Positions 1-48,046 of a stretch of DNA of 58,649 nucleotides are shown piece by piece. The notes under the pieces are model-generated. The model was not told the origin of the DNA. It ran no database searches and saw only the letters and a program-made list of their open reading frames with translations. Location of the stretch: NCBI GenBank assembly GCA_015232535.1, contig JADFZM010000003.1:1-58649 (forward strand), in the 5' to 3' direction. The stretch's first letter is position 1. Each line of letters begins with the position of its first letter. The DNA is from Candidatus Omnitrophota bacterium (lineage in GTDB: Bacteria > Omnitrophota > Gorgyraeia > Zapsychrales > Zapsychraceae). Position numbers and translations under genes: made by a program.

Positions 1-3000
1 TACAAAGTTTTTATATTTTTCAAGAAGATTCTTCCTGCGGACAAGGATAATCCTTCGGCTAAACTTGAAAGTGCGGTGAAAGTGACAGAGGGGGCAGAGA
101 CTTTATTCGAAGGGAGGCCGGCGGGAGTAGAGATGGTCGATACTTTGATATACGGTCATCCAGCTCTTTGGCCGGTGTATAAAGAAGTTGCTAATAATCC
201 TATTAAAGGGAAGAAAGTCCTAGAGGGAATAGCTGAAGCGCTTCAATCTGAAAATTATTATGAGGTAATAGCGGAGATAAAGGAAGAGCTTGCTACTGAT
301 GGGGTAAGCGACAGAGTTGATGAAGAATATTTCTCGATACCGGAAAGGGAGAGCGGAACTCTAGGGATTCAGGATAAGGCGATGTTAAGCAGGTCTCATT
401 TATCAGATGAGGAGTTAGCTGTTCTAAGGGGTTCGGATGAAGAAGCCGGATTTATCTACAAGCGTGAATATGAAGAATCTCGTGTCAGGGGTCAGATAAC
501 AAATATCCAGGAAGCCCTGCGAATAACTAACTATGATGGGCGTAAGAGGCCGGAAGATCAAAATATCAAGGAAGCATTGATTGCTCTTGATGTTGATAAA
601 GTGATTGCGTGGATTGAAAGTCCTGAAGGAAAATTCAGCGGGCAAGAGGTCCACATATTGGATGGGGTTGGCCCGGACGCTAAGGCGATAGGGAGGCTTG
701 ACCGGAAAGTTGCCGAATATTATGGATTTCCCCACGAGACTGCGAACATTGTTATGATCGCGCCGGATGGAAATGTAATTGTACAGTTGCGTAATACCGA
801 TAGATTTGATGACCATCTGGGAATGTATGGCGGGCATTTGAAGGTGGGGTCAACTCATTATGAAGGAGCGCTGGCAGAAACATTGGAAGAGACGGGATTG
901 GCCTATCTGGATTTTAATCCATCCTTTGTGGGATATGAACATTACGCTATTGATGGAGATAATAATAAGGAACGCCGGTCATGGTTTGTTAAAATTTTGA
1001 CTCAAAGGGAGTATGCCAATATTGAAATAGAAGTTAACAGGCTAAAGACTTTGAAAGACCGATATACCCGCCTGGAGGTAAAAGAAATACTCTCCGAAGC
1101 AAGGGAGAGGGTCAAAGACGGTAAGAATGAAGTTGTCGGTAAGTATCTTATTCCTTTTGCAAAATTATTAAACGCTAAGAAGAAGACTTATGTCCTGGGG
1201 AAGATAAACGGAGCTATGCCGTATGAAAATAAGCCGGTCCGGTACTTGTATGTTAGGGACGCTTATCAGGGAAGAGTAAAGCGAATTATGGCATATTTTA
1301 CTCCGGATTCTTTGGACAGATTGTTTTCCGATGAAAATAAAGGCGACCTTTTACCTAAACTTGAACAGGCTGTCAATCAAGCACGACGAGTCATTGCCGG
1401 GATCGCCAAAGATTTAATTGATCGTGACGAAAAAGACGGAATAACCGTAGAGGCTGTTCAGAGAGCTTTACATAAAAAAAACACTATCGTTTTAAATTCA
1501 GGAATAGGGCGGGATCAGCAATCTTTAGCGGAGGAAGTTGTTCAAAAAGCGAATGAGGCAAGGGGTAGAAGCAAAAAGGGAATTGTAATAACTCTTATCG
1601 GAGGCGGTGGTACGGGAAAGAGTACAACGGCACAAGCTATTGCCAAGAAATTAAACGTTACAAATGTTTATGTTGGGCTCATTTATAGAGCTTTGGCTTT
1701 AGAAATACTAAAGGAAGGTTTCACTGCTGATGCTGATACTGTTGCAAAAGCTTTGGAAGAAACACCTCCTGGTTCCTCAAAAACAAGGGCGGCGATTATC
1801 CTAGAAAAGCTTGAGCTTATCTCGGATAATAATTTTAATCCGAGCATAACTTATAACGGTCAAGATATTAATAGTGAAATTGAAGAACGACGAGTCGACC
1901 TTGAAAAGGCAATGAGCGGAACAGCCTGGAGCCAAAATCTACACAAGCAGATAGCCCATTTCTGGCTTAAAACTGTTGAAGCAGAGGTCGCTCAGGGTAA
2001 AGATGTAGTCGTAGATCTGCGCCCTAAACAAGCCGAGTTGATAAAAGACAAGAAATTAACGGTTTATTTAACCGCAGATATTCTTATCCGGGCCGGCCGC
2101 CGGGCTAATGATAATATTGAATCTAAAGGCCTAAATAATACCGAGCAATCTTATGCATCTAGCGTTGTAGTTCCGGAGCAGGCCATATCGGTAGAAGACG
2201 TTTTGGCCCCGTACTATAACAACAAAGCAAGGGTTTATTTTGATGCCGAGCAAGCCAAGGTTGACAAAATGTGGGAAGGGGCTATAGGGTCCCCGCTTGG
2301 GGCATCGGTCGGTGTCCTTAGCCAGGAATTCTATGACTGGGTTCGTATTTCCTCGGGGGAAGGAGACAGGACCACCGGCGAATTATTCGCGAACTTCATT
2401 AAGGACCGCATTCCTGCCGAGTGGATAGAATCTCTTAAGACAGACAGGGATGCTTTCATTGAATTATTTCCCGGGCACATTGAACTAACGGAAGAAGAGA
2501 TTGTTAAAGATTATCCTAAGGCTAGCCTTCATCAAAGAAAGACGGAAATGGCTATCGAACAAATGTATGAGACCAAGAAAGGCCTTCATGCCCGATATAT
2601 TGTGGCCAATATGCCCGGGCGGTCATCCGTTGTTCAGTTGGTCGGGTTCCTTAAATTTATGGGGGTACCACATGATAAGATATTAATTCATCCCGAGCCA
2701 ACAAAAGAAGCAAAGATAGCATGGTATGAAAAGCTACTCGGGAAAGTAATAGACGAGGTAGATTCGATCGTTTTTATCCCGGTATCAAATGCCGATATTA
2801 GTCCTGCCCTGAATCCCAGCCCAGATAAGCAGTCTACGATCTACCCTTCTGAAAGCCAGCTTAAGATGAGGGTTAGTAATCAAACGGGCTTTGGAGGGAT
2901 TATCAAAGGAAAAGATGGCAAGAAAATTCTCGTGTTGAACATCCGTTCGATCTTTGGCGAAGCAACTAGTGATTTTGTAGATTGGCTTACACCGAAAGCC

Positions 3001-6000
3001 AAAAGTAGCGGACGGCTAAGAAAGATTGTTTTTTACGGTACGGCGGGGGCATTTAATTCTCCGGAGCCCGGGTCTATAAAGAAAAGAGTTGGTGATATTA
3101 TCGTTCCGGATCAAACTTCTATGGAGTTCTTTGACAGTGTTTTCGGCGGTCTTTTGTCATATGAAATAAGTTTTGATAATGCCGCGCTTCTAGCCAGACC
3201 ATTGACCCTGCATAAGATTGATATAGGTGATAAAGCTTTAAATGACTTTAATCAAGCTGAAAAAGAAATAATTGTTCAAGCTGTTAATGGGGTTTCGCTT
3301 ATTAAGCCGGAAAATGGCAAGCCGGTTTTAAATGCTACGACTGCTAATGTTGGAAACGAAACGGCCCGAATGGTTAGGCAGTTGCGCGGAAGCGGAGCTG
3401 AAGCGGCTGACATGGAGTTGTATTATTTGGTGAAAGGCATAGGTGAGATTAATGCTTCTCGCTCTTCAGGGGAAAAGATTCAGTTTTCAACAATGCTAAG
3501 AGTTGCAGATATTCCCGGAACTAAACAAGGAACGGATGCCAATATAAAAAGCCGAGATGATAGAGTTGTTAAGAAGATAAGAGAAATTATTAGTGACCAG
3601 GTTTTTACCTCCATAAGGGAGTTTTTTGATCAAGCCATGGTTCCCGATGGCATTCCAGTCTTGCCTTCGGGGAGTGACAGGGCTATGTTGGCTGATAAAA
3701 GAGATTTAAAAGAATACCAGGAAGTGGTTGCAAAGTATTCTAACAAGAAGAATAGCAAGGGGGAATTAGTCCCTAAAGATGTTAGCGGGGCTAGAATAAA
3801 GTTTGATGAAAAGACTTTAAAATCTTTGCCCTTTAGGGGAAACACGGTTGTTGTATGGTTTGATGAAGAAACAAATCAAAAATTTGTCGAGATAAAAAAG
3901 AGAATACAGGAAAAATTATCGCAACTGACTCGCCAGGACCATAAGCGCTATGGCGAAATGATGAATAAAGTGGCTTTTGTTGATGATAGATCATTTCATC
4001 TTACGCTTTTTGACTTAATCAATCCTGATGATTTTAGTAGCTTATCAGCTGAACAAAGAGAAATAAAAATTAAGGCAGTAAACGAGCAAATACGACAAGT
4101 CTTTGCTTCCTTGAGAGCAGAGGGTAGGCTGGCTCCTATTCAAGTAGGGGTTGACGCTTTAGGTTCATTTATGCCTTTTACGTATTCTTTACTAATTGCT
4201 TTGAGTACTCCCAGAAAACAAGAAGACCTAGATCGTATTAATTATATTAGAGAAGAAATAAGTAAAGCAACAGGGATTGTTTTGGCTAAGCCTTTTGTTG
4301 CCCATAGTACTTTGGGGTATATCGTTAATCCTATGAATGTTGAAGAGTATGCGGCGTACAAGAAAATTGTTGATGAGGTTATGGATGATCCGCAATTTAA
4401 GTTTGAGATTGAATTGGGTAACTTGGAATTACGTTTATTTGAGACCATGGATGATTATGGCGAAAATTCCGTTGATAAAGTTGATTTAGCGATGTATTCG
4501 GTCTTAGATATTAATGATCCCAAGAGTTCTGAAATTGCTTTGGTTGGAGGAAAGGCTGCCAGCTTAAAAGAGCTTGGCTCTATACCTGGGATCAGAGTTC
4601 CCGCCGGATTCAATGTTACAACGAAAGTTTACGCGGATTATCTGGAGCAGATCGGCGCTGCTCCCTATATAGCTAAACTTGAAGATTTCTCTGAACAGTG
4701 GAAAGTTCTTCCAGAGAATGAACCAGGCCGTGAAGCTCTGACAATTGAAATGCGCAGGTTGTCGGAAGAAATTCAAGCTATTATTTTAAGCGGAGAGATC
4801 CCCGAGGAGGTACTAGGTTTAATCTTGGAGTCATATAGAAGTTTGGATAAAGAAGGGCTGCCGGCCCTGGTTGCCGTTCGCTCTTCTGCAACAGCAGAAG
4901 ATATGCCAGGGGCATCATTTGCTGGGCAGTACAAGACTTATTTGAATCAGCAGGGTGATGCAAAGGTCATTGAGGCGATTAAGAAAGTTTGGGCTTCAAC
5001 CTACAATATGAACGCTATTGAATATCGTAACAAGCAGAATATGCAGCATAGTAAGAATAAAATGTGTGCGCTGATACTTGAAATGGTAAATCCCCAATCG
5101 GCGGGGACAGCGTTTTCTGTTGATACAGAAACAGGGGCGCCTTTTATAAGCCTTAATAATACATATGGTCTGGGCGAGGCAGAGGTTTCTGGCATCGTCA
5201 CGTCAGACACTTGGGTTATTGACCCGCAAACTAACACTATTCTCAAACGACGACTAGGCAAGAAAAACGTAAAGATTGTTTATGATCCCGAGAAAAGAGA
5301 GAATGTCATTTTGGAAAACTCTGAACGAGAAAGTAACAGATTCGCGATCAGTACTATTACGGCAAAAGAAATAGCAAGGCAGGTTAGAATTATCCATGAA
5401 CATTATACGAAGAAATCAGTAGATATTAAGTATATTGACGCAGAGTATGTCGTAACAAGCACGGGCGACGTTGTTTTTACACAAACTAGGCCGGAAACGG
5501 TCTGGGGAAAAGGCCGGGCAAAATTGTTAGCTGTAGATAAAGAGAAGGCAAGAAGTTATCCAGTTATTCTGGAGGGAGGGGTTACAGGCTCTTCGGGAGT
5601 GGCGACAGGAGTTATTAGAATTGTTCGTTCAGTAGAAGATGCCGCTAAATTTATTGAGCCAGGGGACATCATGGTCGCGCCCAATACAACCAATGTTTGG
5701 GAACACTCAATGGGGCTGGCCGGGGGCATCATTACAGAAGTTGGAGGAAATGGTAATCACACTGCTGTTGTGTCAAGAGAACAGGGAAAGCCGGCTATAG
5801 TCGGGAACTCTAATGCTATTGAAATACTAAAAGAATATGATAATCAGGAAGTCACTATAGATGCTACCTTAAAGAGAGTTTATTTAGGGGCGGTTCCTTC
5901 GGAATATTTCTATAGCCCTGATAAAATTCAGCCGCTTTATGGTGGCCTATACAGTGAAACCTTGGAGGATGGTTGGGAGGCCGCGAGTAAAACCGGGCAA

Positions 6001-8094
6001 ACTCATCTGGACTCAGAGGGAGGACGGTGGATTGGAAAGCCGAATGTTCCGGTCGGAGAATTTATGGGTATAATTTTTCAAAGAAATCATCGTTGGATTG
6101 CGGAACGATTAAAATCTCCTATTCGGGATAGATTTGAAAACAATATCTATCAAGTAAATTTCGAAGACATCTATCAATGGATGGAAAGGATTCAAGGCAT
6201 GAGCTTTGAGGAATTAGAGGCTATCCATATCGAAAAGATACAAACGATAAAAGAGTATTTAGAAAAAAGCAACGATCTTGAGTTGACAGAGGCGTCTATC
6301 CGCGAGTGGATAGATGTTTTTATTCGTATGAACGCCTATATGGGATTTGCATACAATTTTTATAAAATCACTGAAGGGATGCTGGAGGATGCTTTAAAGG
6401 AAAAAGCTATCCCTGAGCCATATTTTTCTCAGGTTCGACAAGGCATGAGTGTTATTTTTGGCGCGACAGAAGCTACCGAGAGATTAAAAGATTATAGAAA
6501 ACTTTTAGCCCTTTTAAGTAAAGACGGCGGTCAGCTTTTGAAAACATTGCAAGAGGCTTTGGCGGCCGGTAATTTTCTTGAGCTTGAAAAGTTATATCCC
6601 CAGTTCTATGAGTTACTTTTTTATCATGCGACTAATTACAAGGCTTCGAAAAGCATAGATGCTACTTTTTTTAGCGAACCTCCGCTTGCAGTAGTTGTTA
6701 AAGAGCTTATTCGTGATATCGAAGACAAAAGAATAATTAGAATCAATGAGCCGACTGCTGAGAATTTTTATCCTGATGACTACGAGTTTCAAAGGATTGC
6801 CCGGCTGGCTTTAATATCCGAGAAAGTTAGGCAGGATTCGCATCATATTAAGGCAAGAGGACAGTGGAAATTCGCAGAAGTTCTAAAACCGTTGGCGGTA
6901 TTCTTGATAGAAAAAGGAGAGATCGAGGCATTTGGAGATATTTTTGATCATTCTCCGGAGTGGATAATGGAAAAGGTCGCTGATTATGAAAAGGCGCGGC
7001 CGGCTGGAGATAAAGATAATCCCGTTTTTCATATTAAACCGTATGAGATACAGGATTTGATAGCAACTAATGATGATATGATCGGGAATGAGACTATTGA
7101 TGAAGCCATGCTTACGAGTATGGGTCGTTGGAAATTTGACTCAGTTCAGTGGATGGAGGCCTCAAGACAATTGGTACTTGTGAATGCTGCGCGCATAGAA
7201 GAGGTCGTTAAACCGGAATTCTTGGAAAAAGGACAGCATTCTTCTAGAGATATTGTTTTAACACCAAGAGAGTTGAATGATAAGGAGCATACCAAGATAG
7301 ATGGCCTTGCAGGTGGCCTAGGGATCGATAGTGCCAAGGTCATTGTTATTAAACTGGATCAGGTAGCGGCTTTTCATAGAATTTATGGGTTATATTCGGA
7401 TGGTGTTTTATTTATTAGAGAAGATATTCTCTCTGAGGGCAATCAGGATCAGATTAAAGAAGCCTTGGATCATTTGCGCTTAAAGCCAACAGGATTGAGT
7501 TATGAGGAATTAAAGAAGATCCAGTATCATGGGGACTTGAGAAGCCTTATAACGAAACTTTCTAATCGGACAATAAAATGGAAATTATTGTTTTCGTTGT
7601 ACGGCGAAAAGGAAGCAGAACTCTTGATGAGTGGGGTAACAGAGCAATCGATCAAAGACGCTATCATAAGGGCGATTTCGGAACAGTTGGGTGCCGCGAA
7701 ATTAGAATACCAAGAACAGGTAGCTCGTTTACGCAGCGATGCGCTATTTTACGATGGCGTAACAAGAGAGATGGTCAGGAATAAAGCGGGATTTATTCAA
7801 GCTGTCGATATTTTTAACAAAATGAATGATAGAGCAGTATTAGGTAAAGGCAAGATTGATAAGGCATCTTTATCCGATGTCGGAGGCGTTGATTTTAACA
7901 ATATTCGCGTAAACCGCATGGGTAATAACATCGATATTAAATTTAAACCCGCTCAAATGCAGGATATCCTTAATAATGGCATCGATGGTTTTGTCCCGGT
8001 CATTATTGATATAATTCCTCTTATGAATATTTTGCCAATCTTGGGCTTGGAGCCGGCGGATAAAGAGGAATTTAATGTGTCTAGTTTAAATTAG
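1..8094 (+). CDS. Giant multidomain protein, 5'-partial (at least 2697 codons in window). It is a fusion of Nudix-like, cytidylate-kinase-like, nucleoside phosphorylase/nucleosidase-like, 2H phosphoesterase and PEP-utilising (ATP-grasp + phosphohistidine swivel) domains, a long helical region, and a conserved 70-aa C-terminal module.
   Basis: The track ORF 76..8094 begins at a GTG. The same frame is stop-free back to nt 1 (YKVFIFFKKILPADKDNPSAKLESAV-KVTEG...) and no convincing RBS precedes nt 76, so the gene most likely starts upstream of the window. Domain motifs are listed as separate features. Confidence 0.9.
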   Translation, partial: YKVFIFFKKILPADKDNPSAKLESAVKVTEGAETLFEGRPAGVEMVDTLIYGHPALWPVYKEVANNPIKGKKVLEGIAEALQSENYYEVIAEIKEELATDGVSDRVDEEYFSIPERESGTLGIQDKAMLSRSHLSDEELAVLRGSDEEAGFIYKREYEESRVRGQITNIQEALRITNYDGRKRPEDQNIKEALIALDVDKVIAWIESPEGKFSGQEVHILDGVGPDAKAIGRLDRKVAEYYGFPHETANIVMIAPDGNVIVQLRNTDRFDDHLGMYGGHLKVGSTHYEGALAETLEETGLAYLDFNPSFVGYEHYAIDGDNNKERRSWFVKILTQREYANIEIEVNRLKTLKDRYTRLEVKEILSEARERVKDGKNEVVGKYLIPFAKLLNAKKKTYVLGKINGAMPYENKPVRYLYVRDAYQGRVKRIMAYFTPDSLDRLFSDENKGDLLPKLEQAVNQARRVIAGIAKDLIDRDEKDGITVEAVQRALHKKNTIVLNSGIGRDQQSLAEEVVQKANEARGRSKKGIVITLIGGGGTGKSTTAQAIAKKLNVTNVYVGLIYRALALEILKEGFTADADTVAKALEETPPGSSKTRAAIILEKLELISDNNFNPSITYNGQDINSEIEERRVDLEKAMSGTAWSQNLHKQIAHFWLKTVEAEVAQGKDVVVDLRPKQAELIKDKKLTVYLTADILIRAGRRANDNIESKGLNNTEQSYASSVVVPEQAISVEDVLAPYYNNKARVYFDAEQAKVDKMWEGAIGSPLGASVGVLSQEFYDWVRISSGEGDRTTGELFANFIKDRIPAEWIESLKTDRDAFIELFPGHIELTEEEIVKDYPKASLHQRKTEMAIEQMYETKKGLHARYIVANMPGRSSVVQLVGFLKFMGVPHDKILIHPEPTKEAKIAWYEKLLGKVIDEVDSIVFIPVSNADISPALNPSPDKQSTIYPSESQLKMRVSNQTGFGGIIKGKDGKKILVLNIRSIFGEATSDFVDWLTPKAKSSGRLRKIVFYGTAGAFNSPEPGSIKKRVGDIIVPDQTSMEFFDSVFGGLLSYEISFDNAALLARPLTLHKIDIGDKALNDFNQAEKEIIVQAVNGVSLIKPENGKPVLNATTANVGNETARMVRQLRGSGAEAADMELYYLVKGIGEINASRSSGEKIQFSTMLRVADIPGTKQGTDANIKSRDDRVVKKIREIISDQVFTSIREFFDQAMVPDGIPVLPSGSDRAMLADKRDLKEYQEVVAKYSNKKNSKGELVPKDVSGARIKFDEKTLKSLPFRGNTVVVWFDEETNQKFVEIKKRIQEKLSQLTRQDHKRYGEMMNKVAFVDDRSFHLTLFDLINPDDFSSLSAEQREIKIKAVNEQIRQVFASLRAEGRLAPIQVGVDALGSFMPFTYSLLIALSTPRKQEDLDRINYIREEISKATGIVLAKPFVAHSTLGYIVNPMNVEEYAAYKKIVDEVMDDPQFKFEIELGNLELRLFETMDDYGENSVDKVDLAMYSVLDINDPKSSEIALVGGKAASLKELGSIPGIRVPAGFNVTTKVYADYLEQIGAAPYIAKLEDFSEQWKVLPENEPGREALTIEMRRLSEEIQAIILSGEIPEEVLGLILESYRSLDKEGLPALVAVRSSATAEDMPGASFAGQYKTYLNQQGDAKVIEAIKKVWASTYNMNAIEYRNKQNMQHSKNKMCALILEMVNPQSAGTAFSVDTETGAPFISLNNTYGLGEAEVSGIVTSDTWVIDPQTNTILKRRLGKKNVKIVYDPEKRENVILENSERESNRFAISTITAKEIARQVRIIHEHYTKKSVDIKYIDAEYVVTSTGDVVFTQTRPETVWGKGRAKLLAVDKEKARSYPVILEGGVTGSSGVATGVIRIVRSVEDAAKFIEPGDIMVAPNTTNVWEHSMGLAGGIITEVGGNGNHTAVVSREQGKPAIVGNSNAIEILKEYDNQEVTIDATLKRVYLGAVPSEYFYSPDKIQPLYGGLYSETLEDGWEAASKTGQTHLDSEGGRWIGKPNVPVGEFMGIIFQRNHRWIAERLKSPIRDRFENNIYQVNFEDIYQWMERIQGMSFEELEAIHIEKIQTIKEYLEKSNDLELTEASIREWIDVFIRMNAYMGFAYNFYKITEGMLEDALKEKAIPEPYFSQVRQGMSVIFGATEATERLKDYRKLLALLSKDGGQLLKTLQEALAAGNFLELEKLYPQFYELLFYHATNYKASKSIDATFFSEPPLAVVVKELIRDIEDKRIIRINEPTAENFYPDDYEFQRIARLALISEKVRQDSHHIKARGQWKFAEVLKPLAVFLIEKGEIEAFGDIFDHSPEWIMEKVADYEKARPAGDKDNPVFHIKPYEIQDLIATNDDMIGNETIDEAMLTSMGRWKFDSVQWMEASRQLVLVNAARIEEVVKPEFLEKGQHSSRDIVLTPRELNDKEHTKIDGLAGGLGIDSAKVIVIKLDQVAAFHRIYGLYSDGVLFIREDILSEGNQDQIKEALDHLRLKPTGLSYEELKKIQYHGDLRSLITKLSNRTIKWKLLFSLYGEKEAELLMSGVTEQSIKDAIIRAISEQLGAAKLEYQEQVARLRSDALFYDGVTREMVRNKAGFIQAVDIFNKMNDRAVLGKGKIDKASLSDVGGVDFNNIRVNRMGNNIDIKFKPAQMQDILNNGIDGFVPVIIDIIPLMNILPILGLEPADKEEFNVSSLN
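700..1010 (+). other. Nudix-hydrolase-like domain within ORF1 (degenerate Nudix box)
   Basis: The segment IVMIAPDGNVIVQLRNTDRFDDHLGMYGGHLKVGSTHYEGALAETLEETGL (box at 829..900) resembles GX5EX7REUXEEXGU. The spacing is off by one and the box Arg is replaced by Ala (AETLEETGL). Confidence 0.55.
1576..2110 (+). other. Cytidylate kinase (CMK)-like P-loop domain within ORF1
   Basis: The Walker A motif is IVITLIGGGGTGKSTTAQAIAKKL (1600..1623). It is followed by VYVGLIYRALAL (compare CMK xDTGAMYRA) and a distal KLTVYLTADILIRAGRRAND (compare CMK FLTAsxexRAxRR). Confidence 0.7.
2920..3520 (+). other. Nucleoside phosphorylase / nucleosidase (PNP_UDP_1-like) domain within ORF1
   Basis: Three motifs fit this superfamily: KILVLNIRSIFGEA, IVFYGTAGAFN...VGDIIVPDQ (glycine-rich loop + GDxxV), and GAEAADMELYYL (compare the xDMEsaa motif). 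Confidence 0.5.
3840..4480 (+). other. 2H phosphoesterase (LigT / cyclic phosphodiesterase-like) domain within ORF1
   Basis: Two H-x-T/S-x motifs occur at the expected ~100-aa spacing: SFHLTLFDL (His codon 3997..3999) and VAHSTLGYI (His codon 4303..4305). Confidence 0.65.
4490..5510 (+). other. PPDK_N-type ATP-grasp (pyruvate phosphate dikinase / PEP synthase N-terminal) domain within ORF1
   Basis: The domain carries VGGKAASLKELGSIPGIRVPAGFNVTT and the near-canonical VAVRSSATAEDMPGASFAGQYKTYLN, and ends at FTQTRPETVW. Confidence 0.9.
5570..5890 (+). other. PEP-utilising enzyme mobile (phosphohistidine swivel) domain within ORF1
   Basis: Motifs are GSSGVATGVIRIV, GDIMVAPNTTNVWEHSM and GGIITEVGGNGNHTAVVSREQGKPAIVG. 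The putative phospho-His codon is at 5758..5760. Confidence 0.85.
7882..8091 (+). other. Conserved 70-aa C-terminal module (copy 1), shared with ORF2
   Basis: The sequence is GGVDFNNIRVNRMGNNIDIKFKPAQMQDILNNGIDGFVPVIIDIIPLMNILPILGLEPADKEEFNVSSLN-stop. It aligns with the last 70 aa of ORF2. Confidence 0.8.
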
Positions 8095-8182: not shown

Positions 8183-8296
8183 ATGACATTTCACTTCCAA
8201 AATTTTAAATCCAACAAACTAAACAGGGGCTTAGGCTTTCTAGCCGCCTTCTTTCTAGTACTTGAATCCATTCTTTCTCCCGTTGCTTCTTATGCG
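8183..8296 (+). other. Sec-type signal peptide (or signal anchor) of ORF2
   Basis: In MTFHFQNFKSNKLNRGLGFLAAFFLVLESILSPVASYA|QS there is a basic n-region, a hydrophobic core and an A-x-A-like SYA site. ORF3 carries the same SYAQ junction. Confidence 0.7.
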
Positions 8297-11200
8297 CAAA
8301 GTGTTTATGATCTTCCGGCTGTAGGCGCTCAGGTTAATTTAAGCCAAAGCTTCGCCCCGGCGGTATTAAAAGGGATCAGGATCGACCCCAAAGAGCCGCT
8401 AAACTTTGATTTCATCGTCGATGCCGGCGATTCCGGATTAAAAGACGCGGAGTTAAAGAAAGAATCCGAAAAACTTATTAAATATTTCCTCGCCTCATTG
8501 ACCGTCCCTAAAGACGAGCTTTGGGTCAATTTATCCCCTTATGAAAAAGACCGCATAATCCCCGATTCGCTTTCCCAAACCGATATGGGACGCGACCTTC
8601 TCGCCCAGGATTATATCTTAAAGCAATTAACCGCGGCTTTGGTTTATCCGGAGGATGAACTGGGGGCAAAATTTTGGGAAGAGGTTTATTCTAAAGTTAA
8701 AACAAAATACGGCGCTAAAGACCTGCCGGTCAATACCTTGTCTAAGGTATGGATAATCCCGGATAAAGCGACTATATACGAGAAGAACAACACTGCTTAT
8801 ATCGTTGATTCCCATCTAAAGGTAATGCTTGAGGAGGATTATGTAGCCATGGATAAACAGAAAGCCATGGCGGAATCCCGCGATTCCTCGCGGGACAGTG
8901 ATTTACAAAGGACGAACGGGGAAATAAACAATATTCTGCGTTCGATCATAATCCCGGCAATTGAAAAAGAAGTTAATACCGGAAAGAATTTTGCTAATTT
9001 AAGGCAAGTTGTTAATTCTCTTATTTTGGCAACCTGGTATAAAACCAATTTAAAAGAAAGTTTACTTGGAAAAGTTTACGTCGATAAGAATAAAATATTT
9101 GGCATTGTTACCGCAGATGAGAATTTTAAAGAGAAAATATACAACCGTTATTTAGAAGCTTTAGAGGCCGGAGCAAGGAATTATATCAGAGAAGATTACG
9201 ATCCCAAGACTCGGCAGCTTGTTCCGCGCAAATATTTTGTTGGGGGATTAAACTTAGAAGGAATCGGATATCGCTCCTCTTCTGCGGACAATGAAAAAAT
9301 TAATCGTTTAAGCCCTGGGCCTGTATCAGAAATCAATCTGACTTTAAGAACGGATAGAAATATGCTTTCGGGGATCGAGAAGAAAGCCCCCGCATTAAGC
9401 CGGTTTAATGACCTTAAGATTGTTTCTTGGCAAAATGGAGCAATGATTGCCGAAGGTTATATTGATGATCCCAACGAAAAGATTTTGGTAAAATTACTGA
9501 CTGACGATTCTTTGAAAAATAAAAGAGAGTTTGCGGTTTATGAAGAATTACTTGCCCATGATTCTTCTTTAAGTTTTCTTGAATTATTTCCTTCATATGA
9601 AGGTCAGGCAGTTCTTGAATCTTCTGATTTAAATCTTCCTTTGTTTGCGGGTAAAATCGGCCTTAGTGAAGGAACAAAATATTTTGTTGTCAGAAAAGCA
9701 CAAGGGGTAAATATCAGAGAAAGAATCGTTGAATTAAAAGAAAAACTTCAAGGCGCTCATTCATTGGAAGCAGATGAACATGTTATCGGAGATTTATATT
9801 CGATTATAGATGCAATTAAAAGGCTTCATGCTAGAGGAATAATCCTAAAAAATCTAAGGGCTGATAATATATTAATTGATCCCCGAAAGAATTCGATTAC
9901 GATAGACGTAGTTTCATCTCTTTCCATCGCAGATGCCCATAATTCCGAAATAGATATTTATGGCGGGCAAAGAAAAACCTACCAACAGGGAAATAAATTG
10001 CTTTATTATGGAAAAGCCGATATAGAAAGTTTCGATGAAATAGCGTTATTGTACTCGGAAGGTTTATTAAGCTCAAAGTCTTCTTTAATATCGAGCTTGT
10101 CAAGCCTAAGGTTATCAGCGGCCGAGTTCTTTTATAAAACCAGCGACCCTTATGAATTATCCGAGGTAGTTCCATCAATAGGGGCTGATGAGATATTGCT
10201 TTTGTTGGCTAATAAAAGAAATAATATCGGTGTATGGAATCAATCCCGAAAGATAAGAGAATTAGGGGCAGAAAAAGGTGGAGAAGCGGTATTAGAGCTA
10301 AGAAAATTGTTAAATCCTTTAAAAACCCAGGAACCTCGCTTACGTTCGGCGGCCCTTGATGGTTTGATGGCGACAAATTCTCCATTGTCCGTTAGGGCAA
10401 TTGCCACCGCATTGAAGGATCCCGACCGTTTTGTTAAAAGATCGGCAGCCAGTTATTTGGGGAATTTTCCCAGAAGTAAAGTAGCGGTAAAGGCCTTGAT
10501 CAAGGCATTAGCGGACCCAGACAGCGCGGTTTTTGAGAATGCTCTTGATTCCATAAGTAAGATTGGAGACGAAGATACTATTGTTGAATTGAATATTCTA
10601 CGTTCGGGAGAGCCTAAGATAATGACGTTTTCAAGATTTGATGATCATGGAGGGATGATCAGATATACTAAAAAACCAGTTTACACAGGCTACAACGCCC
10701 AAAAATTGACTTATCAAGGAGAGGAGACCATTGAAAATCCCAGGGTCTCTCAATATTCTAAAACAATCGCAGATCTGCAGAGGAAATTAAAGGAGGAAAG
10801 ATTAAAAAGGAAAATCAATTTAGAAGAAGTTAAAGATAAAAGAATCCCAGCATTCTTCAAATGGCTTGAAGAAAAAGGCCTCGCAGATTATTTTGTTATA
10901 GTCGGCGGAGGCGTCCGCGATCTTTATACGGGAGAGATGCTTAACGATCTAGATATTGGAATAAAAGTAGAATTAACGGATGAAGAAAGGCTGCAGTTTA
11001 TAACTCCCATTAATCAGGCTACTGAAAGGGTTTGGCAATATTCAATGGATAAGCTAAAGTTATTGGCTGATGCCTTAGGTGAGGATGTAAATGTGTTCTT
11101 GCCGCCCCTTTTTGGGAAGAAATCAGTCTTCTGGAGCGATGGCAAGAACCCCACTATAGAAATACAATATACCGGCCCTATAAGACAGGTTGATTCAGAA

Positions 11201-13705
11201 GACGGCACTCCTATTTATATTAAAAGATCCTTATTTGATGAGAATGATCGTTCAGTCTATCTTACTAGGACCAATGCGGCGCTATTATCGACCGGGATTG
11301 ACTCTAGAGGTAACATTTATGGGAGGGTTAGCGCTTTTGATGATTTTGATAACGGTATCGCTCAATTAGCCGGAGATGGTGATAACTTTGATATAGGGGC
11401 CATAATGCGTTTTTTACGGCTCAAATATCAGTTCGGCTTGAAAATTACTCAGGATGATTATTCCTTGGTTCAAGAACAAATAAAGAGGTATTTATCGGAC
11501 GATTCGGAAATCCCCAGCGTTATAATTTATTTTGTTTTGAGCCGGCAGATAGAAAGGCTTCTTGCAACAGCCAAAGACAAAGATGCCGCGCATCTGGAAT
11601 TGGAAAGGCTAGGCATTTATAAATTATTGGACTTGGGAAAACACCGCCAAATAAAGCCGGAAGAAATTGAAGCTTGGGGATTGAATATTGCCCCGGCCTT
11701 AGAAGCGGCAATTATGGAAATTTCTGATATAAGAAAAAGTAGGCAGCGAGAAATATTAAAGTCCAGCTTATTGAATATATTAAATGTGCAAAGTAAGCCG
11801 ATAACGAAGAGGAGGCTTTTTGAGATTCTAAGGATTAATCCAGACTTTGCGAAAGTAAATTTCAGGGAAGTTCTTCAAACTATTGCTTATTATTCTATTT
11901 TAGCCAATCACATCTATTTACTAAGAAAACCATCTCTCTCTGACCTTGCGGAAGAAAGAGCTAATGCTGTGCCGGGATCGGGCGTGACAAATTCAAGATT
12001 ACGTTTTAGCATGGATGATGTCACAAATGTTATTATAAATCCTGAAGTATTAGAATATGATTTTGGTATAAGCTTCGATGAGTTGACTGATGAGGAGATT
12101 TTATTATTGGCTAAAACACCTTATCCCGCTATCGGGCAGACGCTAGGTTTGACTATAGCCGAAAATACCAAGTTAAACCTAAAGCAGTTATTGGAATTAT
12201 TGGAGATCAGGGATAATAGCCTAACAGAAATTGTCTTAGAGAATATTGTATCCAGGTTTAAAGGAGCTACTAATTTAAAAGATACGCTGCAGAGTAGGAT
12301 GCTGCTTATAAGAAATGAGCTAAGAGCTGCCCGTCTTTTGCGTTATGAATGGCTTAAGACTAATACGGATATAGTAGATAAATATAGCCTATCTTTTGTT
12401 GCTAATAATGAATATGCAGGGCTTAGAAATAAGGCCAAGAAATTTAAGGATGAAATTATTCTATATGCCAAAGCCATAGCCAAGCTGGACGGAAAAGACA
12501 CAGTTGTTCACGGTTCAGCGATGAATGTGGTTTTTAATCCTCTAGGTAATTTCCTGCCTCATTCATCAGCGCGATTAAATAGAAATATTGGCATGATAAA
12601 AATAGAGCAATTGCTGGATAAGGAATCAGAAATGGCACCTGTGTGGTCAAGATTAGACTCGGATGAATTATATTTATCCGAGAGAGAGGTCACTGGCGGG
12701 GATTCAGGAATAAATCAGGTCAGAGTCAAGAAATATATAAGGTATAGGGAAAGGAAGACCGGAAAGCTATACTATTCGACCCAATATGAAAAGGCCCAGA
12801 TGTTCTCGGTGATTTCCAGTTATTTGTTCTTTAGGTTGATCGGGCTACCAATCCGCCCGACATTTGTTTTAAGAAAAGAAGACGGAGAGCCGATTCTTTT
12901 AAGAGAGATAATTCACAACAGTTCGCCTTTGGACGAATACAAGATAGTTTTCGGCGAAGATGCTATACAATTTGCTTCCGTATGGAGGAGGCTGTTAAAG
13001 GGGGCGCTATTGGCGGACAATGTTCTGGGCCATCGCGGCCGGGGCCAAGACACTATTTCAATTATCACCAACGCGGATGGCTCGAAAAAACCCTTTTTTG
13101 ATGAAATGAGAAGTGCATTCGGGATTCCCGATGTTATTGATGATAAAATCCCTATTAGCGAGCAGGTAAATTATAATTTCTCCGATAACGTTGTTTCGCT
13201 GCCGGACCGGCAGGTAACGGCAGGAGTATCCGGGCTTTTCCCCGATGAATTATCAGCAAATCCTTATCAATCTAAGGCCCGGCATGCTGACCTGGCCTGG
13301 ATGGCAGGATATTTAAAGCAGGTAACCCCTGAACAATTGCGGGGAATTTTGGATTACGCGAATAAAGCTGTCCCGAATAATGGATTGGATGTTGAGGCGA
13401 TTTTTATGGAATGGCAAAAGGCTTTAGATAAAGTCCGGGAGATATATCCGGATAAAGCGCAATTATCCAACCGAAATTCTCAAGAGACCCCCGGCGGTAT
13501 CGACCTGAATCCGGATAATATAACGATGGATATTAAATCCGATGGGTTAAAGCCGCGCTTTGAGTTCTCCCCCGATATCCTTGAAGCTTATCCAATAAGG
13601 GGGTTTGAGCCGGTCATTATCAATATCTCTCCCATAAACAGCCTGCCTTTATACTTAGGGATCATTAAGGCAGAAGGCGAGATGAGTATAAGCCGCCTTA
13701 ATTGA
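8183..13705 (+). CDS. Giant secreted or membrane-anchored multidomain protein (1840 aa). It has a signal peptide, a conserved N-module, a pseudokinase-like domain, HEAT repeats, a CCA/polyA-polymerase-type nucleotidyltransferase, ~680 aa of unassigned sequence, and the conserved 70-aa C-terminal module.
   Basis: This is one long uninterrupted ORF whose ATG follows an 88-nt AT-rich spacer after ORF1. Domain motifs are listed separately. Confidence 0.92.
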   Translation: MTFHFQNFKSNKLNRGLGFLAAFFLVLESILSPVASYAQSVYDLPAVGAQVNLSQSFAPAVLKGIRIDPKEPLNFDFIVDAGDSGLKDAELKKESEKLIKYFLASLTVPKDELWVNLSPYEKDRIIPDSLSQTDMGRDLLAQDYILKQLTAALVYPEDELGAKFWEEVYSKVKTKYGAKDLPVNTLSKVWIIPDKATIYEKNNTAYIVDSHLKVMLEEDYVAMDKQKAMAESRDSSRDSDLQRTNGEINNILRSIIIPAIEKEVNTGKNFANLRQVVNSLILATWYKTNLKESLLGKVYVDKNKIFGIVTADENFKEKIYNRYLEALEAGARNYIREDYDPKTRQLVPRKYFVGGLNLEGIGYRSSSADNEKINRLSPGPVSEINLTLRTDRNMLSGIEKKAPALSRFNDLKIVSWQNGAMIAEGYIDDPNEKILVKLLTDDSLKNKREFAVYEELLAHDSSLSFLELFPSYEGQAVLESSDLNLPLFAGKIGLSEGTKYFVVRKAQGVNIRERIVELKEKLQGAHSLEADEHVIGDLYSIIDAIKRLHARGIILKNLRADNILIDPRKNSITIDVVSSLSIADAHNSEIDIYGGQRKTYQQGNKLLYYGKADIESFDEIALLYSEGLLSSKSSLISSLSSLRLSAAEFFYKTSDPYELSEVVPSIGADEILLLLANKRNNIGVWNQSRKIRELGAEKGGEAVLELRKLLNPLKTQEPRLRSAALDGLMATNSPLSVRAIATALKDPDRFVKRSAASYLGNFPRSKVAVKALIKALADPDSAVFENALDSISKIGDEDTIVELNILRSGEPKIMTFSRFDDHGGMIRYTKKPVYTGYNAQKLTYQGEETIENPRVSQYSKTIADLQRKLKEERLKRKINLEEVKDKRIPAFFKWLEEKGLADYFVIVGGGVRDLYTGEMLNDLDIGIKVELTDEERLQFITPINQATERVWQYSMDKLKLLADALGEDVNVFLPPLFGKKSVFWSDGKNPTIEIQYTGPIRQVDSEDGTPIYIKRSLFDENDRSVYLTRTNAALLSTGIDSRGNIYGRVSAFDDFDNGIAQLAGDGDNFDIGAIMRFLRLKYQFGLKITQDDYSLVQEQIKRYLSDDSEIPSVIIYFVLSRQIERLLATAKDKDAAHLELERLGIYKLLDLGKHRQIKPEEIEAWGLNIAPALEAAIMEISDIRKSRQREILKSSLLNILNVQSKPITKRRLFEILRINPDFAKVNFREVLQTIAYYSILANHIYLLRKPSLSDLAEERANAVPGSGVTNSRLRFSMDDVTNVIINPEVLEYDFGISFDELTDEEILLLAKTPYPAIGQTLGLTIAENTKLNLKQLLELLEIRDNSLTEIVLENIVSRFKGATNLKDTLQSRMLLIRNELRAARLLRYEWLKTNTDIVDKYSLSFVANNEYAGLRNKAKKFKDEIILYAKAIAKLDGKDTVVHGSAMNVVFNPLGNFLPHSSARLNRNIGMIKIEQLLDKESEMAPVWSRLDSDELYLSEREVTGGDSGINQVRVKKYIRYRERKTGKLYYSTQYEKAQMFSVISSYLFFRLIGLPIRPTFVLRKEDGEPILLREIIHNSSPLDEYKIVFGEDAIQFASVWRRLLKGALLADNVLGHRGRGQDTISIITNADGSKKPFFDEMRSAFGIPDVIDDKIPISEQVNYNFSDNVVSLPDRQVTAGVSGLFPDELSANPYQSKARHADLAWMAGYLKQVTPEQLRGILDYANKAVPNNGLDVEAIFMEWQKALDKVREIYPDKAQLSNRNSQETPGGIDLNPDNITMDIKSDGLKPRFEFSPDILEAYPIRGFEPVIINISPINSLPLYLGIIKAEGEMSISRLN
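8297..9247 (+). other. Conserved ~320-aa N-terminal module (copy 1), shared with ORF3
   Basis: Long runs are identical with ORF3: KLIKYFLASLTVP, WVNLSPYEKDR, MGRDLLAQDYILKQLT, LVYPEDELG, SHLKVMLEED, IEKEVN.GKNFA.LRQ, NLKESLLG, PRKYF.GG. Confidence 0.85.
9420..10060 (+). other. Protein-kinase-like domain of ORF2, probably a pseudokinase
   Basis: ILVKLL matches a VAIK-like Lys and FAVYEEL matches the alpha-C Glu. The catalytic-loop region LHARGIILKNLRADNILID (9826..9880) aligns to HxxGixHRDLKpxNILxD, with HRD replaced by LKN (catalytic Asp to Asn). TIDVV sits at the DFG position. Confidence 0.55.
10250..10595 (+). other. HEAT / PBS-lyase-type repeats in ORF2
   Basis: The segment LRSAALDGLMATNSPLSVRAIATALKDPDRFVKRSAASYLGNFPRSKVAVKALIKALADPDSAVFENALDSISKIGDEDTI shows the repeated (A/L)L.DPD..VR..A pattern. 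Confidence 0.7.
10840..11460 (+). other. tRNA nucleotidyltransferase / poly(A) polymerase family head domain (PolyA_pol-like) in ORF2
   Basis: YFVIVGGGVRDLYTGEMLNDLDIGIKV (10889..10966) matches the GGxVRDxLLGxxxxDxD signature. The downstream IMRFLRLKYQFGLKI matches the RxxRFxxxxgF helix motif. Confidence 0.8.
13493..13702 (+). other. Conserved 70-aa C-terminal module (copy 2), shared with ORF1
   Basis: The sequence is GGIDLNPDNITMDIKSDGLKPRFEFSPDILEAYPIRGFEPVIINISPINSLPLYLGIIKAEGEMSISRLN-stop. Confidence 0.8.
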
Positions 13706-41223: not shown

Positions 41224-41463
41224 ATGCAGGCGATATTTAGAGGCAAGGCTTACGGGGCCGTTACCGTCGGGGAAAGAGGGCAACTGGTAATACCGGCTCA
41301 GCTAAGGAAAGAGTTCAACATCAATCCCGGAGACCAGCTTATGGTTTTTGCCAAGCCCGACAAGAAGGTCATAAGCCTTATGCATGCAAAGGATTTCGCG
41401 AAATTCTTGGAACAGGCAGCGAGGATGATTTCCAAGCTGGAAAGAAAGATTGATAAAAAGTAG
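41224..41463 (+). CDS. AbrB/MazE/SpoVT family DNA-binding protein
   Basis: VTVGERGQLVIPAQLRKEFNINPGDQLMVF is the SpoVT-AbrB swapped-hairpin motif. I prefer ATG 41224, which has an AAGGAGGT RBS 6 nt upstream, over the track start 41203. Confidence 0.8.
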   Translation: MQAIFRGKAYGAVTVGERGQLVIPAQLRKEFNINPGDQLMVFAKPDKKVISLMHAKDFAKFLEQAARMISKLERKIDKK

Positions 41464-41473
41464 GAAAAGAGCG

Positions 41474-42736
41474 ATGCAAATCATATTTATTAGTCTTTTT
41501 TTATTATTTTCATCCCCGGGAATTTCCATAGCTGAAGAGATTTTATCCTGGGAAGATTGCATTAAGGAAGCGGCAAAGAACCATCCCGACCTTATATCCG
41601 CAAAAGAAGTCCTTAAGCAATCACAGGCTAACAAAGAAATAACAAAAAGCTCAGCCCTGCCGCAGGTAGGCGCCAGCGTAAGCGCGTCAAGCTCAAAAAA
41701 GTCTACAGCTGAGGGAACAGATGAAACCTACAGCTATGGGGTTACGGCAACGCAGCTTCTTTTTGACGGATTCAAGGCCCAAGACGATATAAAGGCGGCT
41801 TCCGAGGATTTGCAGGCGGCGCGCTACGGCTTTCAATACGCCTCTTCGCAGGTAAGGAAGGAATTAAGAGCGGCTTTCATTAATTTGCTCAAGGCGCAGG
41901 AATTGTCAGTGATAACCGAAGAGATCTATAAAATAAGAAAAAGCAATCTGGATTTAATAACTTTGCGCTACGAGTCCGGCGTCGAGCATAAAGGCGCGCT
42001 GCTTAAGGCCAGGGCAAACTTAGCCCAGGCGCAATTGGAAATTGACGAGAATAAAAGAAATATTAATTCTGCCCAAAGGGAGTTGTCTTCTCACTTGGGC
42101 CGAACTGAAAGCTCCCGGTTGAAGGTGAACGGAAGCCTTGGGGTAAAATTTGCGAAAGAAGAATCTCCGGATTTCGATAAATTAGCGCAAGCCCATCCCA
42201 ATCTGGCAAAATATGTTTCGCAAAGAAATTCCGCGGTGTTTTCCCTTAAATCCGCTAAGGCCGGTTTTATTCCTGAGCTTAATGCCCATGGAGGCGCGAG
42301 CCGAAGTTCTTCGGAGTGGCCCCCCGAGGGCGAAGCCTGGAACGCAGGGCTAACATTATCGGTCCCTATTTTCGAAGGCGGATTAAAGACCGCGCAATTA
42401 CGGAAGGCAGAGGCAGTTTACAACCAAGCGGTTGCGGATGAAAAAAGCGTCAGAAATTCAGTGGCTGTTTCTATTGAAAAAGCGTGGGGGGAATTAATCT
42501 CGGCCGTTGATTCGGTCGATATCGAAAGGCAATTTCTGGATGCTGCCGAGGAGCGGGCAAAGATATCCGAGGAGCAGTATTCGCTTGGCTTGATTCAGTT
42601 CGACAATTGGACGATAATCGAAGACGACCTGGTCAGGGCAAAAAAGGCCTTCTTGGATGCTCAGATAAATGCTTTGGTTTCCGAGGCGAATTGGATTCAG
42701 GCGAAAGGAGAAACCCTGGAATATGCGCAAAATTAA
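41474..42736 (+). CDS. TolC family outer-membrane efflux protein
   Basis: The signal peptide is MQIIFISLFLLFSSPGISIA. The two-repeat OEP pattern is present (LSWEDCIKEAAKNHPDL...; PNLAKYVSQRNSA...). ATG 41474 is preferred over 41450. Confidence 0.85.
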   Translation: MQIIFISLFLLFSSPGISIAEEILSWEDCIKEAAKNHPDLISAKEVLKQSQANKEITKSSALPQVGASVSASSSKKSTAEGTDETYSYGVTATQLLFDGFKAQDDIKAASEDLQAARYGFQYASSQVRKELRAAFINLLKAQELSVITEEIYKIRKSNLDLITLRYESGVEHKGALLKARANLAQAQLEIDENKRNINSAQRELSSHLGRTESSRLKVNGSLGVKFAKEESPDFDKLAQAHPNLAKYVSQRNSAVFSLKSAKAGFIPELNAHGGASRSSSEWPPEGEAWNAGLTLSVPIFEGGLKTAQLRKAEAVYNQAVADEKSVRNSVAVSIEKAWGELISAVDSVDIERQFLDAAEERAKISEEQYSLGLIQFDNWTIIEDDLVRAKKAFLDAQINALVSEANWIQAKGETLEYAQN

Positions 42737-45646: not shown

Positions 45647-45654
45647 AGCATCCT

Positions 45655-47587: not shown

Positions 47588-48046
47588 ATGAGCCATATCC
47601 CCTTACCCGAGTTTGCCGACAGGATCAACGAAATTCTTCCGGTATTGTTCCGCGAGTTCTCTAAAAGGCAGGCTAACGAGTTTTTCAAGGGCAAGATTAC
47701 TATGCCGCAATTCCTTGTTTTAGGATTTTTATACAAGCAAAAAGAAGCAAAGATGTCGGATTTGGCAATGTTCATGAAAGTTTCAACTCCCGCCATGACC
47801 GGCACCGTCGATAGGATGGTAAGAGACGGTTATGTGTCACGTTTATACGAAGCCAATGACCGAAGGATCATAAATATCGGACTGACCGCAAAAGGCATAG
47901 CTTTGGTAAAGAAAATATATGAGCAAAGGCGGGAAATGATAATCAATGTGTTCGGAAAATTAACCGAAAAAGATCGAGAGGATTATTTGAGGGTATTAAC
48001 CCAAGTACATAATGTGATGGTAACCGAAAACAACGTTAATTTATGA
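47588..48046 (+). CDS. MarR family transcriptional regulator
   Basis: The winged-HTH pattern is ITMPQFLVLGFLYKQKEAKMSDLAMFMKVSTPAMTGTVDRMVRDGYVSRLYEANDRRIINIGLT. An alternative start lies at 47576. The stop overlaps the tolC start (ATGA). Confidence 0.88.
   Translation: MSHIPLPEFADRINEILPVLFREFSKRQANEFFKGKITMPQFLVLGFLYKQKEAKMSDLAMFMKVSTPAMTGTVDRMVRDGYVSRLYEANDRRIINIGLTAKGIALVKKIYEQRREMIINVFGKLTEKDREDYLRVLTQVHNVMVTENNVNL

Follow-up and report, generated by a model that had tools for sequence, protein, structure and literature searches.

A predicted exported head-tail protein of Omnitrophota that combines a minimal class II nucleotidyltransferase, HEAT repeats, and two degenerate kinase folds

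ORF2 is a single open reading frame (ORF) of 1840 amino acids (aa) on the forward strand (8183..13705, +) of a 58,649-nucleotide stretch of Candidatus Omnitrophota DNA (contig JADFZM010000003.1, positions 1 to 58,649), referred to below as the window. The protein is a member of an Omnitrophota head-tail family of exported modular proteins, and it appears to be laid out as a signal peptide, a conserved head of 320 aa, variable cargo cassettes, and a conserved tail of 70 aa. We consider it fairly probable that ORF2 is an exported head-tail carrier that holds two degenerate kinase folds, HEAT repeats, and one probably active minimal nucleotidyltransferase (NTase), that the acceptor of this NTase is something other than the tRNA CCA end, and that the protein acts outside the cytoplasm of its producer. 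The folds of the domains, the states of their motifs, the recurrence of a unit composed of HEAT repeats, linker, and NTase, and the restriction of the named relatives to Omnitrophota are direct observations.

The cargo would comprise four units. The first is a kinase-like domain, PKL1, a putative pseudokinase that has lost the catalytic Asp, evolves fast, and probably serves in binding or as a scaffold, and the second consists of HEAT repeats and a short linker. The third is a predicted minimal class II NTase of head and neck, with all family-invariant residues including those of the metal-binding DxD, and the fourth is a helical region joined to a second kinase-like domain, PKL2, which resembles CtkA and PI4KII and is probably dead. 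The NTase would be the sole module capable of catalysis.

A minimal class II nucleotidyltransferase behind HEAT repeats

The NTase cassette, of the CCA/poly(A) polymerase (PAP) type, spans aa 876-1155 (10808..11647, +) and was recognized by HMMER, profile comparison, AlphaFold2 (AF2) modeling, Foldseek, and VIA. On ORF2 alone, the Pfam family PolyA_pol (PF01743) gave an E value of 0.13; the match covered just 23 residues and scored 13 bits, short of the cut-off of 23. A profile built from 28 NTase cassettes that are 24-51% identical to ORF2 (alignment A1) matched the human mitochondrial CCA enzyme (E = 3.3e-7) and E. coli-type PAP (E = 1.5e-6) in the PDB, in two stretches that correspond to motif A and to the region from motif C to motif D. 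The AF2 model of the cassette had a predicted local distance difference test (pLDDT) score of 91.8. When it was submitted to Foldseek, class II CCA/A-adding enzymes and PAP filled all of the top 43 ranks (E from 1.2e-7), and VIA aligned 220 residues with the T. maritima enzyme 3h3a (Z 15.2; root mean square deviation [rmsd] 3.3; residues 1-248 of 417). The same head and neck were found by VIA in the class II enzymes 3H3A, A. aeolicus 4WBY, B. stearothermophilus 1MIV, human TRNT1 (4X4W), and E. coli PAP (3AQK), with Z scores of 15.2-10.5 and 199-233 aligned residues.

These structural matches end at chain residues ~222-260 of chains that are 350-425 residues long (the match to the B. stearothermophilus CCA enzyme covers residues 1-228), and by their extent the tRNA-binding body and tail domains are not present in the ORF2 cassette. 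The relatives P0019, P0040, P0072, and P0073 likewise have no body or tail domain, because their carrier tail starts ~15-20 aa past the cassette. The data bear out a proposal made earlier from the letters of this DNA (the sequence-only reading), according to which ORF2 contains a conserved CCA/poly(A)-type NTase head with an intact GG...DxD signature, and the structural comparison that it had suggested returned a class II head/neck fold. A CCA-adding or poly(A) enzyme in the usual sense was not recovered, since the cassette is limited to head and neck, has no RRD, and keeps only the Arg of EDxxR.

Motif A, which is GG-x-VRD...DxD in class II enzymes, lies in the segment GGGVRDLYTGEMLNDLD at aa 908-924 (nt 10904-10954) and reads G908 G909 G V R912 D913 ... 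D922 L D924. The alignment with the class II enzymes also extends over the part between motifs C and D, including the Arg of EDxxR. ORF2 has an extra helical insert after the DxD strand. In class II enzymes, motif B (DxxRRD) is responsible for ribose recognition (consulted part of PMC2910056) and motif D (EDxxR) for nucleotide templating (consulted parts of PMC7014341 and PMC2532741). A counterpart of motif B was not found in ORF2, where R-T-N (x-T-G in the family) stands opposite the R-R-D of TRNT1 in an alignment that is uncertain by a few residues. At motif D, ORF2 reads G1072-A1073-I-M-R1076, with the Arg alone kept and G-A in place of E-D; in A1 the first position is G in 22/28 sequences, the second D in 12/28, which read G-D, and the last R in 26/28. 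The acceptor is probably not the tRNA CCA end because the cassette has neither the tRNA-binding body and tail nor ribose- or base-templating motifs, and the NTase would probably transfer nucleotides to another molecule. The HEAT repeats may act as a substrate-binding platform in place of body and tail.

The residues that define the family are strongly conserved. GG, DxD, and GP (G998 P999 in ORF2) are invariant in 28 of the 28 sequences of A1, and R912, D913, R1076, and R1079 occur in 26; ORF2 keeps all of them. Position 993, which judging by the strand order of the model may be the site of the third carboxylate, is E in 11 sequences, among them ORF2, D in seven, and neither of these in the other 10.

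A whole-library HMMER search with aa 860-1780 of ORF2 (1.84 billion proteins, cluster representatives) returned 88 representatives including ORF2, and all but four of these match the first ~300 query residues only, which corresponds to a cassette of ~280 aa. The position of the cassette varies among the relatives, and the proteins that contain it reach 7840 aa. With the A1 profile, it was detected in 25 of 401 genomes of the phylum (E<=1e-5), about 10 times in full length, within open frames of 1,508-57,099 aa. Some chains harbor several NTase cassettes, such as P0010 (7840 aa), at ~3389, ~3708, and ~5682, and P0042 (1576 aa), at ~414 and ~851. All named relatives (10/10) are proteins of Candidatus Omnitrophota metagenome-assembled genomes, annotated as hypothetical, HEAT-repeat, or ATP-binding.

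A same-genus orthologue of ORF2, P0007 (1508 aa, genome G355), matches it in the succession of head, PKL1, HEAT repeats, NTase, and tail, lacks the C-terminal kinase-like cassette, and is 36% identical to ORF2 over 936 aligned positions. Identity between the two proteins varies largely among segments, from 50% in the head, 46% in the HEAT repeats, and 45% in the NTase, which is as well kept as the HEAT repeats, to 38% in the tail, 27% in PKL1, and 25% in the 65-aa linker. In the P0007 NTase, motif A is split by an insertion of ~140 aa that separates the GGGVRDLY helix from the D-I-D strand. The P0007 gene (L018:3903-8426 (-), contig C106) lies between guaB/guaA-like genes and groEL and is not syntenic with the window.

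The HEAT repeats upstream of the NTase are of the PBS-lyase/alphaRep type and cover aa 700-808 (10280..10606, +). Pfam HEAT_2 (PF13646) matched aa 741-802 with an E value of 3.7e-10 and 40.4 bits (cut-off 27.7), and alphaRep structures in the PDB matched aa ~701-808 with E values of 5e-28 to 1e-10; this is the only significant domain call on the single ORF2 sequence, and it confirms the HEAT repeats that had been placed after the kinase-like fold. In 14 of 59 cassette rows, that of ORF2 included, the linker (aa 811-875, 10613..10807, + in ORF2) directly precedes the cassette. To quantify the association between HEAT repeats and NTase, hidden Markov models (HMMs) iterated from ORF2 segments were run on the 88 proteins, with ORF2 counted and P0015, a near-duplicate of P0007, dropped, and 350 aa were considered on each side of a cassette; 17 cassettes were too close to the record start for the upstream test. 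HEAT repeats ended <=350 aa upstream in 38 of the 58 cassettes with enough upstream sequence, for which 20.2 would be expected at random positions, and started <=350 aa downstream in 4/36. HEAT repeats, linker, and NTase thus look like a recurrent unit, although the coupling is to be read as a tendency and not as a statistic because the cluster representatives are related. A word-based homologue search with aa 410-1140 was uninformative, returning only five unrelated HEAT proteins and ORF2; because HEAT words swamped the candidates, this region was avoided in later searches.

In an explanation along the lines of the sequence-only reading, the kinase fold would be atypically active, as an AMPylase or nucleotide binder, and the NTase would act on tRNA or RNA 3' ends after export. 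We regard this as very improbable. As to the NTase, the retained GG...DxD and motif D Arg are in its favor, as is the finding that CCA enzymes are the best match by profile and by fold. It is at odds with the missing body and tail, which form the tRNA-binding site of class II enzymes (consulted part of PMC8563995), with the missing RRD, and with G-A in place of E-D. Furthermore, two canonical PolyA_pol genes occur elsewhere in the genome. A PF01743 search found them on other contigs with 98.7 and 54.6 bits (G000 C201:7248-7631 (+), L025, and C164:6762-7130 (-), L026) and did not return the ORF2 site. One presumably encodes the housekeeping CCA-adding enzyme and the other a further class II enzyme, and a housekeeping CCA function for the ORF2 NTase was rejected on this basis.

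A search of one literature library found no paper on an Omnitrophota cassette NTase or an Omnitrophica pseudokinase. The word nucleotidyltransferase appears 0 times in the body text of either of two preprints on long Omnitrophota proteins (10.1101/2023.11.21.568195 and 10.64898/2026.06.07.730766), the supplements of which might list the PolyA_pol family. Reduced to head and neck and coupled to HEAT repeats, the NTase represents a branch of the class II nucleotidyltransferases that is borne by an already described class of Omnitrophota multi-enzyme proteins, and it offers the tRNA nucleotidyltransferase field a new natural form of the catalytic core.

Two degenerate kinase-like domains

PKL1 covers aa ~410-650 (9410..10132, +). 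On ORF2 alone, Pfam Pkinase gave an E value of 0.038 and 13.8 bits, under the cut-off of 31.7, and NCBIfam gave weak matches to LanL, LanKC, and Kdo kinase at aa 496-599. A profile from an alignment of six PKL1 modules (A2) matched 2070 kinase chains in the PDB at E<=1, the best being NEK1 (1.9e-7) and PDK1 (2.1e-7). A control profile of four modules (A4), from which both modules with canonical HRD/DFG had been removed, matched kinases only (727 chains, best 1.1e-4), which ruled out that the kinase call is due just to these two relatives. In an ESM Atlas search with aa 400-690, the ten best named clusters were all kinases (0.94-0.96). A kinase fold, which the sequence-only reading had suggested for 9420..10060, is thus supported by profile homology. 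The segment over which PKL1 appears homologous to the eukaryotic-type Pkinase (PF00069) starts past the alpha-C helix, takes in the catalytic loop, and extends into the C-lobe, and a beta-3 Lys and an alpha-C Glu appear to be present; PKL1 differs from Pkinase by L-K-N in place of HRD, by the absence of a GxGxxG loop from aa 400-437, and by catalytic positions that vary between orthologues.

Among the 401 genomes of the phylum, PKL1 searches gave matches in 16, G000 included, mostly within very long open frames. They were sorted into four paralogous modules (G070, G087, G046, and G356), one orthologue, and otherwise ordinary Ser/Thr kinases; with 34.7 bits (E 1.7e-8), the G087 module exceeds the cut-off for Pkinase, and that of G356 reaches 25.1 bits. 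Another conserved pseudokinase-like variant, unrelated to PKL1, was seen in the kinase-domain proteins L011, L012, and L013 (G399, G255, and G299), which read I-H-G-G-I-K-P-N-N (L013, I-Y-G-G-L-K-P-H-N) at the HRDxKxxN site.

The catalytic loop of PKL1 is found in the segment LKNLRADNILID (aa 555-566, nt 9845-9880) and reads L-K-N557-L-R-A-D-N562. In A2, the HRD Asp position is occupied by N557 in ORF2, by N in the orthologue, and by D in the other four modules (4/4), in accordance with the replacement of the catalytic Asp by Asn that had been noted before. The catalytic-loop Asn is N562 in ORF2, D in the orthologue, and D, E, D, and H in the other modules. K437 and E449 align with Lys/Arg and Glu in 5/6 modules, the Lys column being one residue off-register in 3/6 rows. 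D575 precedes the relatives' DFG Asp by two columns of the alignment, and near this position the orthologue has Asn. The Lys/Glu pair that had seemed retained appears to be present, and the retention of the DFG Asp is uncertain.

The differences of the orthologue at key positions and the identity of 27%, which places PKL1 among the least conserved domains, fit a non-catalytic pseudokinase. PKL1 is probably such a domain, under relaxed constraint at catalytic positions and with a function in binding or as a scaffold. The atypically active kinase proposed earlier could draw on the retained K437, E449, and N562 and possibly on D575. It agrees poorly with the same orthologue substitutions and low identity, and the combination of residues at the key positions of ORF2 was found in none of the six module relatives. 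Of the pseudokinase and the AMPylating or atypical fold between which the sequence-only reading left the choice, the former therefore stands; the latter found no support, given the HRN of the orthologue, its Asp for N562, and its Asn near DFG.

The region after the NTase starts with a middle segment (aa 1160-1272, 11660..11998, +) that is partly common to the orthologue (BLASTP to ~aa 1230, 33% identity over 63 pairs) and had no family match in Pfam or NCBIfam. The C-terminal cassette then begins with a helical part (aa 1273-1440, 11999..12502, +), for which AF2 predicted helices with a pLDDT of 72-85 in model residues 1-110, and continues with PKL2 (aa ~1470-1762, 12590..13468, +). Homologues of this region in the whole-library search were the four representatives P0012, P0039, P0051, and P0056, with all of which the helical part aligns; in P0012, a cassette of this type has a head remnant on one side and a GHKL ATPase with the tail on the other.

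Sequence searches with PKL2 were largely negative. Pfam, including PI3_PI4_kinase (PF00454), had no match for the ORF2 domain or the four homologues at E<=1. A profile search of the PDB gave nothing meaningful, the best hit (CatSper zeta, E 0.0011) being to a low-complexity helical stretch and judged a chance match. Weak partial matches only (E 2e-4 to 7e-3) were obtained in 5 of 400 other genomes of the phylum. For aa 1480-1770, the ESM Atlas returned 29 unnamed clusters and one cluster, at rank 26, that has PF00454 in 19% of its members and is no more than a lead.

The AF2 model of the C-terminal cassette had a pLDDT of 62.9 overall, 55-88 in the core, and <50 around the loop. With this model, Foldseek found only PI3K-gamma, PI3K-alpha, PI3K-delta, and Vps34 (E 1.3e-4, probability 0.99-1.0, TM-score 0.24), and the matches include the helical-plus-kinase arrangement; in PI3K, as in the ORF2 cassette, a helical region precedes the kinase. 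VIA, which is independent of Foldseek, matched aa ~1470-1762 to CtkA (3AKJ; Z 13.2, 226 aligned residues, rmsd 3.9), PI4KII-alpha (4HND; 12.5), and actin-fragmin kinase (1CJA; 12.3), these three with 226-235 aligned residues, followed by CotH (11.8), HipA (11.6), Fam20 (10.6), and Legionella MavQ (7M7A; 10.0), with 211-244 residues aligned over model residues ~198-490. We assign PKL2 to an atypical kinase fold of the CtkA/PI4KII-alpha/actin-fragmin-kinase type with moderate confidence because of the pLDDT of the model. It differs from PI3K/PI4K-like kinases in that no Pfam or PDB family was matched at the sequence level, in the sequence of its loop, and in belonging to a rare family (four other representatives).

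In an alignment of the ORF2 cassette with the four homologues (A3), all four homologues (4/4) read G-Y-x-D-R-D-x-x-N-L and then F-x-D-x-K-x-S-x-G. The order of helix, loop, two strands, and Asp in the model places the D-R-D-x-x-N stretch where kinases have their catalytic loop, and this stretch resembles the DRHxxN motif of PI3/4-kinases, which also have a following Asp. ORF2 reads G-H-R-G-R-G-Q-D-T-I (aa 1616-1625) and then F-F-D-E-M-R-S-A-F-G, with D1640 in FFDEM. Both loop Asp and the loop Asn thus appear to have been lost from its copy, which is probably dead because G-R-G-Q-D-T stands in place of D-R-D-x-x-N. A frameshift or assembly artefact was rejected as a cause of the degenerate loops, the other two frames containing stops or unrelated sequence that does not restore the motif. 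The ~680 aa at 11460..13490 that had been left unassigned can now be described as a short helical segment and a helical/atypical-kinase domain with a degenerate loop; the HMM searches proposed for this region gave nothing with Pfam or PDB profiles, whereas the modeled structure gave the fold.

Cargo cassettes can therefore be catalytically degenerate, as are both kinase folds of ORF2, while the four PKL2 homologues keep the loop, and lists of domains based on fold only overstate the enzymatic repertoire. The two presumably dead kinases would bind rather than catalyze. It could be argued that all enzyme-like modules are inactive relics and that ORF2 is a structural or adhesive surface protein built on HEAT repeats, a scenario to which we give little credence. 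Two of the three enzyme folds have indeed lost catalytic-loop residues, the orthologue has the motif A insertion and no PKL2, and family members differ at the third carboxylate position. The NTase, in contrast, keeps every family invariant within a set of 28 sequences that are as little as 24% and at most 51% identical to ORF2, and this conservation, together with the 45% identity between orthologues at the level of the HEAT repeats, argues for selection on the active site.

Export, carrier family, and site of action

The first 38 residues of ORF2 (8183..8296, +) were predicted to be a Sec-type signal peptide, cleaved between A and Q of S-Y-A-Q. K9, K12, and R15 precede aa 16-34, the sole hydrophobic 19-residue stretch of ORF2 (Kyte-Doolittle 1.9-2.0), and small residues occupy positions -3 and -1; the orthologue has V-N-A-Q with the equivalent cleavage position after the A. 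By the usual rules, the N terminus would thus be a Sec-type signal, with no internal transmembrane (TM) helix predicted in the protein, and the export signal of the sequence-only reading stands as a prediction.

The conserved head of the carrier family follows directly (aa 39-375, 8297..9307, +) and was matched in 29 of 87 relatives by phmmer. After it, the junction motif T-D-R-N-M-L-S-G (aa 390-397, 9350..9373, +) is the only match of the D-x-[AN]-M type in ORF2. Its equivalent is D-N-S-M in the orthologue, and DRAM and DLAM flank the kinase cassette of P0012; the equivalent site upstream of the C-terminal kinase cassette of ORF2, NSRLRFSMDD, has no D-x-[AN]-M motif. These junctions might be cassette boundaries or processing sites. 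The tail (aa 1770-1840, 13490..13702, +) starts with GGIDLNP, was found in 21/87 relatives, and is common to the orthologue, the relatives, and ORF1, a longer 5'-open frame (1..8094) that precedes ORF2 and shares the ~70-aa C-terminal tail with it. ORF1 contains NUDIX, cytidylate kinase, 2H-phosphoesterase, PPDK_N, and swivel domains. A search of the genome with the whole ORF2 payload revealed no paralogue.

With signal peptide and head, variable enzyme cassettes, and tail, ORF2 shows the pattern of the carrier family. In the consulted parts of two bioRxiv preprints (10.1101/2023.11.21.568195; 10.64898/2026.06.07.730766), no domain of Omnitrophota giant proteins is commoner than HEAT_2, cassettes of the PPDK, NUDIX, and kinase types are found often, 94% of 916 long proteins have a signal peptide or TM helices, and cytoplasm-type enzymes behind export signals are described. 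ORF2 resembles the long multi-enzyme proteins termed Archaeovorins, as presented in the consulted part of West-Roberts et al. 2023, in its phylum, signal peptide, HEAT_2 repeats, and cytoplasm-type cassettes on one chain, and open frames that contain its type of NTase cassette reach 57,099 aa. It differs from them in having merely 1840 aa, not the tens of thousands of residues of the giants, and no internal TM helix. The sequence-only reading had considered a cytoplasm-type enzyme behind a signal peptide unexpected. The combination does exist, but ORF2 is no special case in this respect, because cytoplasm-type cargo is usual in the head-tail family, as in ORF1 with Nudix, cytidylate kinase, and PPDK.

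In the event that ORF2 is not exported, its N-terminal segment would be an inner-membrane anchor, and the cargo would remain in the producer's own cytoplasm as a tethered multi-enzyme scaffold with the ORF1 enzymes. We consider this improbable, even though the cargo enzymes of both ORFs are without exception NTP-dependent and of cytoplasm type, 46% of the 916 long Omnitrophota proteins are TM-only and cytoplasm-facing according to the consulted part of 10.64898/2026.06.07.730766, and no secretion-system genes flank ORF1 and ORF2, the surroundings being an ars operon, lipid genes, and, further on, efflux pumps. In both orthologues, basic residues before the hydrophobic stretch and a small-x-small site after it speak against an anchor and predict an N-in/C-out orientation with cleavage. 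Furthermore, there is a single hydrophobic segment, followed right away by the head, and head and terminal tail resemble sorting modules.

Several points weigh against an exported carrier with one active NTase. The signal peptide was called by eye and hydrophobicity alone, and confidence in the PKL2 model is intermediate (pLDDT 62.9, <50 near the catalytic loop). That motif B is absent was deduced from an ungapped extension of the HMMER alignment, the third carboxylate is not fixed in the family and catalytic competence is therefore not certain, and the HEAT association is about two-fold over background among representatives that are not independent. Some pseudokinase-like folds catalyze other reactions, and the two kinases are taken as dead from the loss of motifs. 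Finally, it is not obvious from where enzymes that depend on NTPs would draw them outside the cytoplasm, a problem of the whole family that leaves room for the cytoplasm-facing alternative and for a delivered effector.

For the exported carrier that we favor, action after Sec export would take place on the surface of the cell or else inside a host or prey cell that has NTPs. Omnitrophota are uncultured, very small bacteria and suspected predators or parasites. In a more specific and, in our estimate, unlikely version, the HEAT-linker-NTase unit would be an undescribed exported NTase effector, a stripped CCA core retargeted by HEAT repeats and borne by head-tail carriers of predatory or epibiotic Omnitrophota, which modifies RNA ends or proteins of the host or prey, with the degenerate kinases serving in targeting or as decoys. 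Legionella DrrA/SidM is a secreted AMPylase of the pol-beta type, and SelO and SidJ are enzymes with a pseudokinase fold. We take these proteins to be comparable to such an effector in the general idea, by which a pol-beta-fold NTase or a kinase-like fold would be delivered out of the producer to act on the molecules of another cell; none of them was among the matches of the fold searches, and the ORF2 NTase belongs to a different subfamily. Cytoplasm-type NTP-dependent enzymes behind export signals are a recognized puzzle of Omnitrophota long proteins, for which ORF2 is a small and tractable class member with one well-defined, probably active NTase that has a high-confidence model and 87 relatives.

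No tRNA genes were found within the window, and no type II secretion or pilus genes adjoin ORF1 and ORF2 in it. Further on, the window contains two efflux sets, OEP-HlyD-MacB(ABC/FtsX)-MFS at 41450-46908 and OEP-(HlyD-like)-AcrB at 48043-53384.

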